Part shown: positions 24,375 through 31,012 of the stretch, piece after piece
Layout of the letters: each line of letters opens with the position of its first letter
How positions within the stretch are numbered: position 1 is the first letter of the stretch
Source: Patescibacteria group bacterium
GTDB lineage: Bacteria > Patescibacteriota > Minisyncoccia > Phycocordibacterales > Phycocordibacteraceae
DNA: 64,000 nt
Direction: 5' to 3'
Assembly: GCA_040384705.1 (NCBI GenBank)
Contig: JAZKIU010000001.1
Location: 542,053-606,052, forward strand
Notes under the pieces: generated by a model
The model's database searches: none
Told to the model about the DNA's origin: nothing
The model's input: the letters and a program-made list of their open reading frames with translations, nothing else
Position numbers and translations under genes: made by a program

Positions 24375-24929
24375 CTAGAGGGAGTACCTGGTGCGAAGCT
24401 TACGGCGTAGTGCTAGGTGGTTGGGGACGGTGCGCGCTACCTCCGCCCAGAAGCTACTTGAATGATTGTGCTCCTTGGTGTGGCAGAGCTCGTGCACGAT
24501 GACGTAGTCTGCGAGCGCGCTCGGGAGGAATGCTATGCGGTAGTTGAAGGAGAGGTTCCCCGTGGCCGAGCAGCTTCCCCATCGTGTCTTCTGGTTCCGT
24601 ATCGATACAGTGCCATACGAGAAGCCATAGATTGCATTGAAGTGCCTCAGCCGCTCCGTAGCGAGCGTTCGTGCGGCAGCGATAGCCTCCTTATACGCTC
24701 GAGACCCCTTTCTGGGCTTCGAGAGCGGAATGGGAGGTGTGCCGCCCGTCTGCTTCAGGAACTTTGTTCGTGCCGACTCTATCCATACCTTGCGTGCCTG
24801 GATGAACTCCTCGACCTTCTTCTGGCTTATCCGTACCGGCTTCGTCACCACGACGCGGCTGTCCGGATGGACCGTTATGCGCAGGTGGCGTGCGCGCGAG
24901 GATTCGTGTATTTCATACTCGGTACCCAT
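24375..24929 (-). CDS. YgjP-like M48/SprT-type metallopeptidase (DUF45)
   Basis: HELCH zinc-binding motif near the C-terminus, RITVHPDSRVVV beta-strand N-terminus typical of DUF45. Confidence 0.8.
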   Translation of the reverse strand: MGTEYEIHESSRARHLRITVHPDSRVVVTKPVRISQKKVEEFIQARKVWIESARTKFLKQTGGTPPIPLSKPRKGSRAYKEAIAAARTLATERLRHFNAIYGFSYGTVSIRNQKTRWGSCSATGNLSFNYRIAFLPSALADYVIVHELCHTKEHNHSSSFWAEVARTVPNHLALRRKLRTRYSL

Positions 24930-25039
24930 TTCCCTTACTATACCGGGCGTAAAAGAAAGCCGCCCGCTCCGTGCGGAGGGGCGACCGGTAGTTGGGTTAG
25001 GCGGCTTCGAGGAGCGGCGAGCCGATGAATGGTCAAACG

Positions 25040-25341
25040 ACTGTAGTTCGAGGAAACTTGCAGACCACTGTTCCTAATGTGCTATAACGACTACAGCCCC
25101 CGGAAGCAACCATGAAGAGGTGCAAATGAAGCCATGGGGAGTGAGCGATACCGACCAGGTCCCTGCTCGAGAGAGCCAAGATCTTATGCGCGCATAGCGC
25201 TCTTAGTGACAGCAGAGGACGTTGCGGCCGGTGATCAAGCGCAGCGTTGGTCACCAGTAGGATGGCACACCGCGAAATCCTGTCGGGAATATACCGCTCG
25301 CTACACTTGAAAGGTCCGTGATTGTCACGGACCTATTTTTA
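25040..25341 (+). ncRNA. Candidate structured non-coding RNA of unknown family ending in a strong intrinsic terminator
   Basis: About 300 nt GC-rich region without a credible ORF. Multiple hairpins (ATGCGCGCAT, GGTGATCAAGC..GTTGGTCACC) and terminator GGTCCGTGA-ttg-TCACGGACC + TATTTTTA at 25312-25341. Confidence 0.3.
25312..25341 (+). terminator. Intrinsic terminator
   Basis: 9-bp perfect stem followed by TATTTTTA. Confidence 0.75.
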
Positions 25342-25552
25342 TCTGCGGCAAGATTAATCTTTTCATAAATACCCGTCTTCCCCGCATCATTTCCCATTCG
25401 GAAATGCTTATAGTAGGGTTGAGCTGAAGTTCGATCCTGAACCTTGAGAGGACGTCATGAGCTACGATCAGATCGCGACCGGCAGGGTTGCCTGCTTGTC
25501 GATTGACGGCTCCGCCGCTAGAAGCATCCGCTTCGTTGCAGTCACTGAATAA

Positions 25553-25777
25553 CTACCATTTGCTATCGTATTCATATCTAACTTCCTTATTGATAAATGA
25601 ACTGAGGCCCTGTCCACACCTTGCGAGCACCTTCATACTCTCGACATTTGATCTTCCAGTTCGCAAATAAGTGTACTTGTAGCACGAATCGTCACTGAAC
25701 TTCACAATGATGTAATCCTCACCGATCTTGTACTGCCGTATGTTTGATTGCCAAGATAAATTCTCGTATTGTTCCAT
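25553..25777 (-). CDS. KTSC-domain protein
   Basis: SNIRQYKIGEDYIIVKFSDDSCYKYTY...VESMKVLARCGQGLSSFINKEVRYEY matches the KTSC consensus. Lies in the AT-rich island. Confidence 0.55.
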   Translation of the reverse strand: MEQYENLSWQSNIRQYKIGEDYIIVKFSDDSCYKYTYLRTGRSNVESMKVLARCGQGLSSFINKEVRYEYDSKW

Positions 25778-25887
25778 ACGCTGTTGTTATTGATGTATGG
25801 GAACCTTATCAAGATGTGATTATGTAAATCTCAATTTTTTATAAAGAATTTATAAAAAATTGCCATCCACTTTTTACTATCCATAGT

Positions 25888-28605
25888 TTGATTGAAATAC
25901 TTATCAACACCTCTTTCAGTAAAGGGTATCATAACTATGATACCCTTTACTTTATGGAGGTCGTCGCTAAGCAATCATTCAAGGCAATTTATTTCCCTGA
26001 CATTAGGGAGCGGGATACGAAGTCCAAATCATTTACACTTGCCTTCCCGGAAAATGAGAAGAAGGTATACGAGACAATAAGGCACTTCTCAAGCCATGAG
26101 ATGAGGAAAGTTCTAGGAGTAAAGACTTTTTCTGATCTTGAAACGTATGCCACTAAGGCCGACTTGCCGGTAAATAAATTCTGTATTAATAAGCTTAAGT
26201 ATCAACTAGCAAGAGGCGTTAGCGCCGGCCAATTCCCTATTGACCCTGCCCATGTCACCTTCCAGGGCGCTAAGGATATGCCTCTGCAAAATTGGTATCC
26301 ATATCTTGAAGGTTACTCGCCGGACTTTGTTAAGCATATTATCGACACTCACGTTCATAAGTCTGCAAAGGTTATTTACGACCCCTTCTCGGGCACTGGA
26401 ACTACACCGATAGTTGCGTCTGCGCTCGGGTTCACGGCTCTGTATTCAGAAGTTAATCCTTTGCTTCAGTTCTTAACTAAAGTTAAGACAAAGGCGCGAA
26501 ATGCTCCGAACAGAAAGAAGCTTTTACGCCAACTTGAGGCAATTCTCCCTGATCTCAGAATAGAAATTCTTAAACATGACGAGGATCAGGAATTGAGGAA
26601 GACTTATGCAGACACCTTCGGAGAGAGTAAGTTCTTCTCTGAGAAGGTCTTTAGCCATGTTCTTAAGACAAGAACATACCTGAGTACTCTCTATTTTGAG
26701 GACATACTTCTATCCGAACTAGTAACAGTAGCGGTACTTTCCAGCCTAGTTGAGAACTCTTTTCTCAAGCGCCAGGGTGATCTTAGATTTAGACGCGGAA
26801 AGGAGCTCGATGACTTGAAGACGATTGACTTCTTTGAGAGCCTGACGACCCGACTGCAGCAAATGCTTAAGGACTTGGAGCAGATTAGCTCTAGCGATGC
26901 GCCTACATTAATAACTGAGGATGCCCGAAGTGTAGGTAAGCTTCCCTTTCTAGGAATAGACGCTGTCATCACGAGTCCACCCTATCTGAACGGAACAAAC
27001 TATTTCCGCAATACTAAGGTCGAACTCTGGTTCCTTGGGTACTTAAAGACGCAAGCAGATCTAACCAACTTCAGGAGATTGGCCGTTACGGCAGGTATTA
27101 ATGATGTATCTCTCAAAGCCGAGAAATCTGTACATAACCGGGAACTAAATACGCTACTTGAGACCTTGGAGAAGAAGGCCTATGACAAGCGGATACCAAA
27201 GATGGTCTATGACTACTTCGCGGATATGGAAACAATTTTTGGCGATTTGAGAGGACAGCTTAATAAGGATGCTGTACTTGCTATCGATCTTGGTGACTCT
27301 ATCTATGGGGGTGTTCATGTAAAAACGCATAACATACTGGTATCTGTATTGGAGAATATTGGCTACGTTTTTGAAAAGGAGATTGTTCTGAGAAAGCGAC
27401 AATCAAATAACGGTCAGGAGTTAAAGCAAGTCCTGCTTATATTTAGAAACCCAGATCGAATCCAGAAAGAAAAGATAAAGCCTGAATGGCAAAAAGACTG
27501 GAAGAATTTCAAGAAGAATATACCCCACCACCAAGGGGAAATGTCTAAGCGAAACTGGGGAGACCCAATCCATTCACTCTGTTCCTATCAAGGGAAGCTC
27601 AAGCCATCAATTGCTAGCCAACTAGTCTCAATATTTGTTCCTGAGAATGGGAAGATGCTCGATATTTTTGGAGGTGTTGGCACAATTCCGCTTGAGGCCT
27701 CGCTGCAAAACAAAAAATCATACTCCTTCGATATAAGCCCTACCGCCATAGCGATATCGAGAGCAAAGCTCAACCTTCCATCGGTAAAGAAGATATGGCA
27801 GATCGTTGCGGATTTGGATTCTTGGATTCAGAGTAAGAAGTTGTCACAGGACGAGATTCTCACGACAGCCAAGTTCGGAATGAATAAGACCATGAAGGAC
27901 TACTTTCATCCAAAGACGCTCGAGGAAATTACACTTGCAAGAAAGTATTTTGCTAAGGAGGGATACGCTACAACCGAGCATGCACTTGTAATGTCTGCTC
28001 TTATGCACATTCTGCATGGGAATCGACCTTATGCACTAAGCCGCCGTTCGCATGGGATAACTCCTTTCGCCCCTACTGGCGAATTTGAGTATAAGAGCCT
28101 GATAGAAAAGCTGACCGAGAAAGTTGATCGTACCTTGACCCATCTTCAGAGGGACACCTTTAGTCCGGGAGAAGTTTGTTTCCAAGATGCTACGAAGACA
28201 TGGCCAGCAGAAGTGCGCGATCTGGATGCGATCATTACCAGCCCTCCCTTCTTTGATAGCACCCGGTTCTATGCAGCAAACTGGATGCGTCTTTGGTTTG
28301 CTGGTTGGGATGCAGCGCACTTCAAGACTCAGCCAGTGAACTTCGTTGATGAGTTACAAAAAAAAGATTTATCCATCTACGACGGTATCTTTATGCAAGC
28401 ACGGGAACGCCTCAAGAAGGATGGGGTATTTGTACTACATCTCGGCAAAAGCCATAAGTGCGACATGGCAGATGCGCTATCAGGAAGAGCTGCTCGATGG
28501 TTCGAGGTATGCGATATCTTTGAGGAGAGTGTAGAAGATGGAGAGTCTCACGGTATCAAGGACCGCGGCTCGGTTACTAAGCACCAATACCTCGTACTAC
28601 GTTAG
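25888..28605 (+). CDS. Tandem double DNA methyltransferase (two SAM-MTase modules, each motif I DPFSGTGTT / DIFGGVGTI followed by SPPY / SPPF; N4-cytosine-type signature)
   Basis: Motif I at about aa 165 and about 585; motif IV ITSPPYLNG at about 355 and ITSPPFFDS at about 782. AT-rich codon usage unlike the flanks. Annotated start is TTG 25888, alternative ATG 25954. Confidence 0.85.
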   Translation: MIEILINTSFSKGYHNYDTLYFMEVVAKQSFKAIYFPDIRERDTKSKSFTLAFPENEKKVYETIRHFSSHEMRKVLGVKTFSDLETYATKADLPVNKFCINKLKYQLARGVSAGQFPIDPAHVTFQGAKDMPLQNWYPYLEGYSPDFVKHIIDTHVHKSAKVIYDPFSGTGTTPIVASALGFTALYSEVNPLLQFLTKVKTKARNAPNRKKLLRQLEAILPDLRIEILKHDEDQELRKTYADTFGESKFFSEKVFSHVLKTRTYLSTLYFEDILLSELVTVAVLSSLVENSFLKRQGDLRFRRGKELDDLKTIDFFESLTTRLQQMLKDLEQISSSDAPTLITEDARSVGKLPFLGIDAVITSPPYLNGTNYFRNTKVELWFLGYLKTQADLTNFRRLAVTAGINDVSLKAEKSVHNRELNTLLETLEKKAYDKRIPKMVYDYFADMETIFGDLRGQLNKDAVLAIDLGDSIYGGVHVKTHNILVSVLENIGYVFEKEIVLRKRQSNNGQELKQVLLIFRNPDRIQKEKIKPEWQKDWKNFKKNIPHHQGEMSKRNWGDPIHSLCSYQGKLKPSIASQLVSIFVPENGKMLDIFGGVGTIPLEASLQNKKSYSFDISPTAIAISRAKLNLPSVKKIWQIVADLDSWIQSKKLSQDEILTTAKFGMNKTMKDYFHPKTLEEITLARKYFAKEGYATTEHALVMSALMHILHGNRPYALSRRSHGITPFAPTGEFEYKSLIEKLTEKVDRTLTHLQRDTFSPGEVCFQDATKTWPAEVRDLDAIITSPPFFDSTRFYAANWMRLWFAGWDAAHFKTQPVNFVDELQKKDLSIYDGIFMQARERLKKDGVFVLHLGKSHKCDMADALSGRAARWFEVCDIFEESVEDGESHGIKDRGSVTKHQYLVLR

Positions 28606-29606
28606 ATATAGGCAAGTATCTTTCTATTTCCGGCTGACAGCTGGGATACGAGGTCGTAGTCTTCGAGAAGCTTCTTGAGCTCGTCGATGCGCTTAGCGAG
28701 ATCAGTACCGCCACGAACGGTGAGGAACCGTGTGACACAGGCATCAACGTCGATGTTTGCGTTTACAATAGGCATCTTACTTGCCATTAAGCCTAGGTCA
28801 GCACCTGTGATTCTAGCAAGCGCTATGAGTTCGTCGTTTGTATAGAAATCGCTCGGCCATCGATCGCTCTTATTACTATTCGCATCAGTTGAGAGCAGTG
28901 CAGCGTTCTCGTCCGTAAGTGGGTAGAGCCAACGGGACGGAAGAATATGATCAACTGCCCAGGATCTTCGATCCGCTAAGTCTAGAGACTTACCAGTCTT
29001 GAAGCACTTCCCTTCAAAACGTTCGAAAAGGGCCTTCAAATCGGGCTGCCTGTTCTCGCCTTGAAGGAGAAGTTCGGCGGTGCGCCGACGTATCGAAGAC
29101 TCATAGAGCTGCTCCTTGGTTCGCTTCGGATTAAGATCGGCATTGATAACGGCCTTACAGGCTCGGCACTCCATCTGTTTCTCCAATGGACCCCAACCAA
29201 CATGTTTACTGAAATCCCTGGCAGGCAGAATTCGGCCACAGGTCCCACACTGTTTCCAGTATGCTTCTCGCGTTTCAGTTGCTGTCCTGAAGAAAGCCAT
29301 CCAGAAACGTTGAGTTGGAAGATTGCCAGCAGCAGTTTGCTCAAGCTTCCAAGTAGTAAAGGGTAGGCCCTTCCCTTCCAAGTCCGTAAGCGGGAGAGAT
29401 GATCCTTTGGCATGCTCAAAACCGCACTTATTGCATACCCATGACTCTAATTCGTATGCTTCTGTTGGCCTAAGAAGCTGAGTGCCAAGGGGCACGGTAT
29501 TAGACGTTTGACAGCGCACACATACGAAATGTGCGAAGGCAGCGTGAATTGATACGCCCGAAACTCTGGCAATATTTGTCTTATTAGTTGTAGTTCGCCT
29601 AGCCAT
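28602..29606 (-). CDS. HNH-family endonuclease with two N-terminal zinc ribbons (candidate restriction endonuclease)
   Basis: CVRC..CNKCGFEH and CGTCGR..CRACK Cys4 ribbons. C-terminal AVDHILPSRW...NAALLSTDANSNK HNH (His-Asn-Asn/Lys) motif. Convergent with and overlapping the MTase by 4 bp. Confidence 0.75.
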   Translation of the reverse strand: MARRTTTNKTNIARVSGVSIHAAFAHFVCVRCQTSNTVPLGTQLLRPTEAYELESWVCNKCGFEHAKGSSLPLTDLEGKGLPFTTWKLEQTAAGNLPTQRFWMAFFRTATETREAYWKQCGTCGRILPARDFSKHVGWGPLEKQMECRACKAVINADLNPKRTKEQLYESSIRRRTAELLLQGENRQPDLKALFERFEGKCFKTGKSLDLADRRSWAVDHILPSRWLYPLTDENAALLSTDANSNKSDRWPSDFYTNDELIALARITGADLGLMASKMPIVNANIDVDACVTRFLTVRGGTDLAKRIDELKKLLEDYDLVSQLSAGNRKILAYI

Positions 29607-29677
29607 CTGAAAGTTGACGTTCGAAGATTACGATGCCAGAAGACAACCGTCAATTGACACCCTCTTAAGCCTTACTA

Positions 29678-31012
29678 CTAGTAGGACTTAAGTCTCCGAC
29701 TCTTCTCATGCGTCCGGATCTTCTCAAGCGCCTTCGCCTCAATCTGACGGATACGCTCACGAGTCACCCCAAACTCCTTCCCCACCTCTTCAAGCGTGTG
29801 ATACACACCATCAAGCAGCCCATGGCGCATCTCAAGGATCTTGCGCTCCTTCGGGCTTAGGTCCTCAAGGATGTCACGAACCTGTTCACCGAGAATACGC
29901 TCGGAGGATTCCTGTACGGGTGATGGAATCTTATCGTCAGCGATGAAGTCGCCGAGCGTAGAGTTCTGGTCGTCGTCGGAACCGATAGGGTTCTCGAGCG
30001 AGAGGGTGTCCTGGTTTATCTTCTCTATTTGGTAGATCTTCTCCACCTCGACGCCCATCTCTATCGCTATTTCCTCGGGCTGTGGGTCACGGCCAAGCGC
30101 CTGCGCGAGGCGGCGCGATACCTGCTTGTACTTCGCGATCGTCTCCACCATGTGGACCGGGATGCGGATAGTGCGGGACTGGTCGGCAAGCGCACGGGTG
30201 ATGGCCTGACGGATCCACCAGGTCGCATACGTCGAGAACTTGAAACCCTTATGGAAGTCGAACTTATCCACGGCCTTGAAGAGACCGAGGTTACCCTCCT
30301 GGATGAGGTCGAGAAGCGTGAGGTCCGGCGAGCGGCCTACGTACTTCTTCGCGATAGAGACCACGAGGCGGAGGTTCGAACGCGCAAGGATGTTGCGTGC
30401 CTCGTCCTCGCCGTCCTCGATGCGCTTGGCGAGCTCACGCTCTTCGGACGCGGTGAGGAGCGGGTACTGCCCTATCTCACGGAGGTATATCTGGATGGAG
30501 TCGTAGCTCGATGACTCGCGGCCCTTGATGTTACGGGTCGCAAGGTACTGGTCGGTCGTGTCCTCGAGCATGCCGCCTTCGAGGATATCGATGCCGTGGG
30601 CGGTGAACCGCTCATAGAGCTCGTCGAGGAACATGATGTCGTCCTCGATGTGCGGGAACTCCTTGAGGATCTCGGAGTACGTGATGTATCCGCGCTCCTT
30701 GCCCTTCACGATGAGGCGCTCTGCCTTGTCGCCCTTCTCCGCTGCTGCCTTCGCTTTGACGCCAGTGACGGCCGCGCGGACGACGCCCATAGCGCGGACG
30801 TTCTTCGCCGCCTTCTTCGCAGGGGTTCTCTTGGCAGCCTTCTTGACCACCTTCTTAGGCGTTTTCTTTACTGCCTTCTTCACGGCCTTTTTGGTGGGTT
30901 TCTTTGTGGTTGCCATTTTTTTGGATGCGGACTTGGAGGGCGTCTTCTTCGCGCTCTTCTTCACAGCTTTCGTTGCCGCCTTCTTCTTGGCGGGTTTCTT
31001 AGATGAAGCCAT
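29678..31012 (-). CDS. rpoD: RNA polymerase sigma-70 factor RpoD with histone H1-like Lys/Ala-rich N-terminal tail
   Basis: Regions 1.2-4 conserved ([39 protein letters not shown]; [21 protein letters not shown]). First about 85 aa are KKxAKK repeats. Confidence 0.9.

Follow-up and report, generated by a model that had tools for sequence, protein, structure and literature searches.

Gene Content of the Locus

In this study, we analyzed a 64,000-nt stretch of DNA (the window) from a Patescibacteria group bacterium (assembly GCA_040384705.1, contig JAZKIU010000001.1, positions 542,053 to 606,052), in which an AT-rich segment lies just 3' of rpoD. The list of open reading frames (ORFs) contained three ORFs in this segment, the number given in the initial annotation of the locus. 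One encodes a fused double DNA methyltransferase of 883 aa (25954..28605, plus strand), assigned from Pfam, PADLOC, and NCBI P0121. The second encodes a putative restriction endonuclease of 334 aa with zinc ribbons and an HNH motif (28602..29606, minus strand), assigned from its homologues, its AlphaFold model, and its pairing with the methyltransferase. The third is a 74-aa ORF, orf74. The methyltransferase and nuclease genes are convergent, and their stop codons overlap by 4 bp at 28602-28605, as had been annotated.

The switch to AT-rich composition that the initial annotation described was found in the base composition of the window. GC content was 0.452 across the eight 500-nt windows of the segment versus 0.587 ± 0.031 in the 118 outside (z = -4.4), and the 64-kb window stayed at GC 0.52-0.63 throughout except at 25-30 kb. 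GC at third codon positions (GC3) was 0.48-0.52 in the three ORFs of the segment versus 0.70-0.81 in flanking host genes, namely those for the helicase, the YgjP-like protein, RpoD, DnaG, and two further host genes. The GC dip and the GC3 contrast with host genes support well that the segment is foreign DNA, and its composition also marks the arrival as recent. Relatives among the Patescibacteria (DnaG identity 34-98%) offered 80 dnaG-rpoD loci for comparison, and the methyltransferase-nuclease cassette was present at none of them. This patchy presence, which the initial annotation had proposed to check in relatives, agrees with the composition in favoring a foreign origin.

We consider it highly probable that the segment represents a Type II restriction-modification (R-M) cassette gained by horizontal transfer in a genome of the Patescibacteria (candidate phyla radiation, CPR). 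This reading is based on the gene content, the geometry, and the behavior of the pair across loci. The system is probably Type IIS-like, and it is probably an N4-methylcytosine (m4C) R-M system.

A DNA Methyltransferase with Two Modules

The methyltransferase consists of an N-terminal domain of ~100 aa, module 1 (~residues 100-500), and module 2 (~residues 520-883). Each module has motif I, followed about 190 aa on by SPPY or SPPF. The invariance of these motifs was scored over 32 homologues. In module 1, motif I for S-adenosylmethionine binding (DPFSGTGTT, 26380..26406, plus strand) has D143, P144, F145, G147, G149, and T151 invariant, and the catalytic motif IV (TSPPY, 26971..26985, plus strand) has T340, S341, P342, and Y344 invariant. 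In module 2, the invariant residues are D570, F572, G574, V575, G576, and T577 of motif I (DIFGGVGT, 27661..27684, plus strand) and T762, S763, P764, P765, and F766 of motif IV (TSPPF, 28237..28251, plus strand). The pairs DPFxGxGT with TSPPY and DxFxGVGT with TSPPF were thus kept in all homologues. From this conservation, both modules appear to be active. The two halves of the protein also gave a collinear alignment, with their motifs I in register and SPPY opposite SPPF, at 24% identity (E = 4e-12). The claim of two complete modules is therefore borne out by the homology of the halves and the invariant motif pairs. Motif I is followed by a variable region, for target recognition, and then by motif IV, which is the alpha-class order.

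The Pfam family N6_N4_Mtase, the match predicted in the initial annotation, was obtained above its cut-off (1.2e-17). The PADLOC model MTase_II (PDLC03389) was matched over its full length at 1.9e-75, by residues 122-521 of a 905-aa frame, and module 2 was matched by other PADLOC methyltransferase models. For the motif I stretch of module 2, the best match among solved structures was 8s9n, a "DNA cytosine-N4 methyltransferase" (E = 6.8e-5). NCBI P0121, an 883-aa "DNA methyltransferase", is 100% identical to the protein. The 905-aa length given in the initial annotation corresponds to a start at TTG 25888. Since the NCBI model and all homologues start at ATG 25954, and the predicted promoter lies downstream of TTG 25888, the start is most likely ATG 25954 and the length 883 aa.

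Module 1 residues 103-471 align with M.DraR1, a 434-aa enzyme encoded on plasmid pCP1 of Deinococcus radiodurans (E = 5e-30), with the TSPPY of module 1 aligned to VTSPPY. M.DraR1 (DR_C0020) belongs to the alpha class, has the motifs FxGxG and SPPY, and was shown experimentally to make C(m4C)GCGG (PMC6712171). The fused methyltransferase resembles this member of the DraI system in its alpha-class FxGxG, its target-recognition region, and its SPPY; M.DraR1 differs in being a single module for the palindromic CCGCGG. In both modules of the window protein, motif IV has the form S-P-P-Y/F of N4-cytosine enzymes and not D/N-P-P-Y/F. The earlier proposal of N4-cytosine chemistry from SPPY/SPPF gains support from this full-length homology of module 1 to an m4C enzyme, which makes N4-cytosine methylation the best-supported chemistry and N4-methylcytosine the inferred product. 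R.DraR1 is a GIY-YIG enzyme encoded ten genes from M.DraR1 (PMC10855626). A 330-aa neighbor of M.DraR1 was also considered as a relative of the HNH protein and was rejected, as the two have no similarity.

A Putative Zinc-Ribbon HNH Nuclease on the Opposite Strand

The 334-aa protein contains two CxxC...CxxC zinc ribbons and an HNH catalytic core, all on the minus strand. Zinc ribbon 1 (C29, C32, C58, C61; 29424..29522) was modeled at a predicted local distance difference test (pLDDT) score of 94-97. Zinc ribbon 2 (C120, C123, C147, C150; 29157..29249) gave a weak match (3.4e-5) to the Pfam zinc ribbon Cas12f1-like_TNB. The HNH core consists of D219-H220, N234, and N243 (28878..28952). All eight Cys residues and the four core residues are invariant in 53 homologues, in agreement with the two Cys4 clusters and the HNH motif of the initial annotation and with the retention of catalytic residues. 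The protein has the fold, the His general base, and the Asp/Asn metal ligands of the HNH beta-beta-alpha-metal class, and its catalytic D-H-N-N set is intact. The motif had been described as C-terminal; it is present, but at residues 219-243 of 334, and about 75 helical residues follow it.

The full-length AlphaFold model had a pLDDT of 84.9 and a predicted template modeling score (pTM) of 0.50, and residues 1-165 alone reached a pTM of 0.83. The model shows a confident N-terminal domain, a low-confidence linker (~residues 160-190), the HNH domain, and C-terminal helices. The difference between the two pTM values points to two domains whose relative placement is uncertain. No structural neighbor was found for the N-terminal double zinc-ribbon domain.

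In sequence searches, residues ~172-258 matched only Cas9 HNH regions, and weakly. Cas9 and IscB provide the closest solved HNH fold, with the same D-H...N...N catalytic set. In contrast to these enzymes, the protein has only 334 aa and its similarity to them is confined to residues ~172-258, and no RuvC domain, CRISPR array, tandem repeats, or nearby Rfam RNA was found. A CRISPR-Cas9- or IscB-like RNA-guided nuclease was therefore rejected, there being neither a RuvC domain split by HNH nor a guide RNA locus. The nuclease had been called zinc-ribbon "guided" in the initial annotation, and we found nothing that points to guidance in a non-classical sense.

The nuclease family is large. At least 580 homologues, counted as clusters at 90% identity, were found at 56-82% identity; they are nearly all metagenomic and all unnamed ("hypothetical protein"). 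Among cluster representatives at 50% identity, core residues ~115-283, zinc ribbon 2 included, recur behind other N-termini in proteins 270-560 aa long. Such swapped N-termini are the pattern expected if one cleavage module has been joined to different recognition modules. The NCBI model of the gene encodes a "hypothetical protein" of 232 aa and lacks the first 102 residues and zinc ribbon 1. As 52 homologues keep the whole 334-aa frame from its first residues, the NCBI model is too short.

Pairing of the Two Genes across Genomes

We compared the cassette with 5 loci obtained by exact-protein look-up and 80 metagenome loci. A fused methyltransferase gene lay convergent and tail-to-tail with the HNH gene in all 70 loci whose sequence continues for ≥1 kb on the 3' side of the latter. 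The gap between the paired genes was 0-40 bp in 67 of the 70, and the other 3 carried an insert of 1-1.3 kb. Four loci had no methyltransferase gene, and their contigs end within 210 bp. In a metagenome-assembled genome of Kiritimatiellae (L004/L005, 9118-10272), a 384-aa NOV_C-domain gene lies between the HNH and methyltransferase genes, and L154 has a 1-kb insert at this place.

The cassette spans ~3.7 kb (about 25,899-29,636). One locus, L001, on an unrelated contig, has 80% nucleotide identity to the window across 25899-29636 only, that is, from promoter to promoter. The surroundings of the cassette vary among loci, and serine recombinase or toxin-antitoxin genes are often nearby. Its carriers belong to several phyla, going by record names. 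When 100 nt upstream of the HNH gene was scanned, an XRE-type helix-turn-helix (HTH) ORF was found to end exactly at the HNH start codon in L090, L101, L121, and L141. These four loci are variants of the same system with a controller protein.

An unfused relative was found on plasmid pA39BP3 of Psychrobacter sp. ANT_P39B (NZ_MN657077), which carries an HTH controller-type gene, a 471-aa nuclease gene, and two separate methyltransferase genes. Its nuclease shares zinc ribbon 2 and the HNH core with the window protein (35% identity over residues 95-271), and its two methyltransferases match modules 1 and 2 (44% identity over residues 93-882). On the plasmid, too, the nuclease gene converges with those for the methyltransferases. 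The plasmid system differs in that its methyltransferases are unfused, a ~92-aa N-terminal part of the fused enzyme is missing, and an HTH controller protein precedes the nuclease. Its nuclease also has an unrelated N-terminal region of 200 aa, so its specificity is probably different. A literature search for pA39BP3 found no paper.

Predicted Promoter and Dyad Elements

A consensus scan predicted a methyltransferase promoter at 25904..25932 (plus strand), with -35 TCAACA, a 17-nt spacer, and -10 TATCAT. In 36 of 39 distinct cassettes, the -10 heptamer TAYCATA was present ≤80 nt from the methyltransferase ATG, versus a background of 1-3%, and it usually stands 25-40 nt upstream of the start. 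The -35 context TTATCAACA recurs in L087, L089, L090, L093, and L094. A perfect palindrome with 16-nt arms, AGTAAAGGGTATCATA-AC-TATGATACCCTTTACT (inverted repeat I3, 25918..25951, 100% complementary), overlaps the -10 box, and just 2 nt separate its end from the methyltransferase ATG. L001 has the same element, and most other cassettes have imperfect dyads of the form TAYCATA-n-TATGRTA. We infer that this palindrome is a candidate operator.

The N-terminal domain of the methyltransferase (residues 1-100, 25954-26250) is conserved among the fused enzymes and absent from the first unfused Psychrobacter methyltransferase (M1), and it has no match in Pfam or the PDB. As an HTH, it gave nothing consistent in Pfam searches on 22 members or in a PDB profile search. 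Controller-free autoregulation is known for some other methyltransferases. Since the searches on the domain gave nothing consistent, binding of the dyad by this domain for controller-free autoregulation stays speculative here.

A second palindrome lies nearby. It is a perfect, AT-only palindrome with 14-nt arms and a 3-nt spacer (inverted repeat I5, 25832..25862), located between orf74 and the methyltransferase promoter and outside the segment shared with L001.

Interpretation as a Type II Restriction-Modification System

The locus combines adjacent and co-inherited genes, methyltransferase motifs, an intact nuclease site, and a patchy, mobile distribution, as is the case for Type II R-M systems. 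Among the catalytic classes of Type II enzymes, HNH ranks second in frequency; it includes the Type IIS enzymes MboII, MnlI, and HpyAV, and its Type II members usually contain Cys4 zinc motifs, which are often structural (PMC4081073). The cassette resembles the Type IIS systems with HNH nucleases (the MboII, MnlI, HpyAV/Hin4II, and Eco31I group) in its HNH beta-beta-alpha-metal nuclease with Cys4 motifs, in its two predicted methyltransferase activities, as would be needed for an asymmetric site, and in its compact, mobile form (PMC4081073). A nuclease of two domains joined by a flexible linker, as predicted here, would fit the Type IIS plan.

Fused enzymes with one module per strand have a precedent. 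M.FokI is one polypeptide with two amino-methyltransferase modules, one for each strand of an asymmetric Type IIS site; its modules are of the N6-adenine (DPPY) type, and its nuclease is a PD-(D/E)XK enzyme. The divergence of the two modules in our protein (24% identity) and their separation in Psychrobacter are compatible with strand-specific methylation. We propose that the two modules share out the strands of an asymmetric target, each methylating one of them and most likely at cytosine N4, and that the 334-aa protein is the cognate endonuclease of the 883-aa methyltransferase. The double zinc-ribbon domain, probably together with the C-terminal helices, would position the nuclease on unmethylated target DNA, and the Cas9/McrA-type HNH site (D219-H220-N234-N243, with one metal ion) would cut it. 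Each gene would have its own outward-facing promoter, with that of the methyltransferase placed in the conserved dyad for possible autoregulation.

Several points weigh against this interpretation. The nuclease family contains no assayed member. The initial annotation expected Pfam matches to both HNH and a zinc ribbon; the weak zinc-ribbon match was obtained, but PADLOC, Pfam, and NCBIfam gave no matching restriction-enzyme model, only weak Cas9 HNH and zinc-ribbon matches. The fused form is carried by metagenome assemblies only. No controller (HTH) ORF was present among the window ORFs between 29607 and rpoD, and with no controller protein in the window, the restraint of the nuclease on entering a new cell is unexplained.

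We considered three other explanations. In the first, the HNH protein would be a homing-type or selfish nicking endonuclease that spreads the cassette via empty sites, with the methyltransferase as an orphan or epigenetic passenger. Phages commonly encode zinc-ribbon HNH enzymes of the homing and nicking kinds (PMC3592412). The cassette is highly mobile, and nuclease residues 111-257 matched the PHROG "endonuclease VII" family phrog_1035 at 1.1e-17. However, no match to the nuclease was found in 50,697 phage records (INPHARED) or in IMG/VR viral contigs, and a phage origin of the nuclease was rejected on these grounds. The pairing in 70 of 70 loci, always in the same convergent arrangement, the classical layout of controller, nuclease, and two methyltransferases in the unfused relative, and the variation of insertion sites among genomes, with no single repeated homing site, also argue against a homing or selfish enzyme. 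We regard this explanation as improbable.

The second explanation is a distinct defense module other than R-M, in which the nuclease would respond to some cue other than missing methylation on a fixed sequence; a modification-dependent (Type IV-like) or signal-activated nuclease coupled to the methyltransferase would be an example. The initial annotation leaned this way, stating that the arrangement is not a textbook R-M layout and could be a distinct defense module. We did not find the layout unorthodox, because Cys4-bearing HNH enzymes are well documented among Type II and Type IIS systems, and the unfused Psychrobacter system has a controller. Scans with Pfam, PADLOC, and NCBIfam detected no sensor, SRA, SBD, or SAVED domain, and a modification-dependent nuclease linked to an active methyltransferase would be self-toxic unless their specificities differ. 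The two genes, the convergent layout, and the controller variants are Type II R-M traits, and we give a non-R-M module as little weight as homing. Least probable of all is that the large protein methylates RNA or protein and has an unrelated HNH neighbor: some homologues bear the JGI name "tRNA G10 N-methylase Trm11", but the matches in its favor (Pfam UPF0020 at 3.7e-9 and weak NCBIfam Trm14, Trm5b, and PrmC matches) are limited to ~50 residues at motif I of module 2 (565-650) and are far under curated cut-offs, whereas the full-length matches, to PADLOC MTase_II and M.DraR1, are DNA methyltransferases, the SPPY/SPPF motif IV is of the exocyclic-amino DNA methyltransferase type, and the linkage to the nuclease is strict.

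A Type II R-M cassette is thus the preferred interpretation. It does not constitute a new defense class or mechanism, and concepts of how R-M systems work are unchanged; only its family of HNH nucleases is unnamed and uncharacterized. Since this family has no model, defense annotators would read the locus as an orphan methyltransferase. A CPR survey counted Type II nucleases only via the PD-(D/E)XK cluster and found many more methyltransferases than nucleases (bioRxiv 10.64898/2026.07.13.738296). Recognizing the HNH family would correct such nuclease counts. It is also a candidate source of new restriction specificity with m4C protection, and it offers a possible new DNA-reading domain and an HNH module of Cas9 type that is compact and carried by a small zinc-ribbon scaffold. 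As a broader and tentative proposal, which we hold to be possible rather than probable, the 334-aa protein might found a new and widespread Type IIS-like enzyme family (at least 580 clusters at 90% identity), with its zinc-ribbon domain reading DNA and a dual alpha-class m4C methyltransferase as partner. In the same proposal, the N-terminal domain of the methyltransferase would bind the dyad promoter in place of a controller, and part of the CPR excess of "orphan" methyltransferases would be explained.

Boundaries and Genomic Setting of the Segment

The terminator given in the initial annotation is present as a hairpin at 25312-25334 followed by a T-run. It had been taken as the left edge of the foreign segment, which places the edge ~200 bp too far to the left. 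At 25457..25510 (plus strand), blastn and tblastn comparison with one related locus, L018, identified a 5' remnant of a host MOSC-domain gene of ~18 codons (MSYDQIATGRVACLSIDG). The remnant had 77% identity to L018 over 61 nt by blastn and 13 of 18 identities to the N-terminus of a 209-aa L018 protein by tblastn. This protein has a MOSC domain (Pfam 1.5e-12), and its gene is intact in L018 (13581-14210, minus strand), where it is placed between rpoD and the orf87 gene. In the window, the frame of the remnant continues into foreign sequence and reaches a stop at 25550-25552. No other part of the L018 MOSC gene was found within the window. GC was 0.60-0.62 over the remnant and fell to 0.33 at 25540. 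Because host MOSC codons occupy 25457-25510 and the GC content does not drop until about 25540, the start of the foreign DNA lies at about 25511-25540. The insertion therefore removed most of the host MOSC gene. In our model, the cassette together with the unrelated small phage-like ORF would have replaced most of this gene just 3' of rpoD.

The insertion of the segment next to the dnaG-rpoD operon had been singled out in the initial annotation. In relatives with long enough contigs, the YgjP-like and helicase genes known from the window recur 34 bp to 7.5 kb beyond rpoD. The intervening DNA is often low in GC and often has defense functions. Just 3' of rpoD, we found a Type ISP/IIG-like enzyme of 1007 aa in L022 (12051-15074); an MmeI-family enzyme with a helicase and a T5orf172 protein in L017 (14088-19858); a GHKL ATPase with a methyltransferase and a Schlafen-type helicase in L030 (13046-18990); and a ResIII helicase in L024 (5070-7418). 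The position next to rpoD, where the operon has its convergent end, is thus a recurrent slot for accessory or defense genes. The compared loci gave no sign of a functional link to dnaG-rpoD, and the placement is explained by such a slot rather than by a link to the operon.

The small AT-rich gene orf74 (25553..25777, minus strand; GC3 0.52) matched the PHROG families phrog_17428 (2e-21) and phrog_24656, a virion structural protein (4.9e-13). It had been annotated as a KTSC-domain gene. At E ≤ 10, no Pfam family other than DUF413 (0.12) was matched, so KTSC (PF13619) was not among the matches, and orf74 is missing from all 85 other cassette loci. A search among 5.8 billion proteins returned only orf74 itself. 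The gene orf74 is a real but orphan phage-like cargo gene outside the R-M cassette.

No transfer RNA or transfer-messenger RNA gene that could have served as an integration site was found, nor were flanking direct repeats marking a target-site duplication, nor tandem repeats. The structured RNA-like element reported on the left flank did not hold up. Rfam gave no match at the gathering threshold over the whole window and 23-33 kb or in an E-value scan of 24850-25900; the sole match was the terminator-like "suhB", below threshold. The fold of 24940-25345 had a z-score of -1.2. Between the YgjP-like gene and the terminator, a GC-rich stretch of 380 nt (24930-25312) is without a convincing ORF; it showed no blastn conservation in the 80 relatives and matched no Rfam family.

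On the right side of the segment, a near-palindrome, CTTAAGCCTTACTACTAGTAGGACTTAAG, lies across the rpoD stop codon (29663-29691). It may be the stem of the rpoD terminator, marking the right edge of the insertion zone. In RpoD itself, residues 1-90 (30740-31012) form a long, Lys/Ala-rich, histone-H1-like N-terminal tail, with an AT skew near -0.5 in the DNA, and the RpoD of L018 shares this Lys/Ala-rich N-terminal tail.

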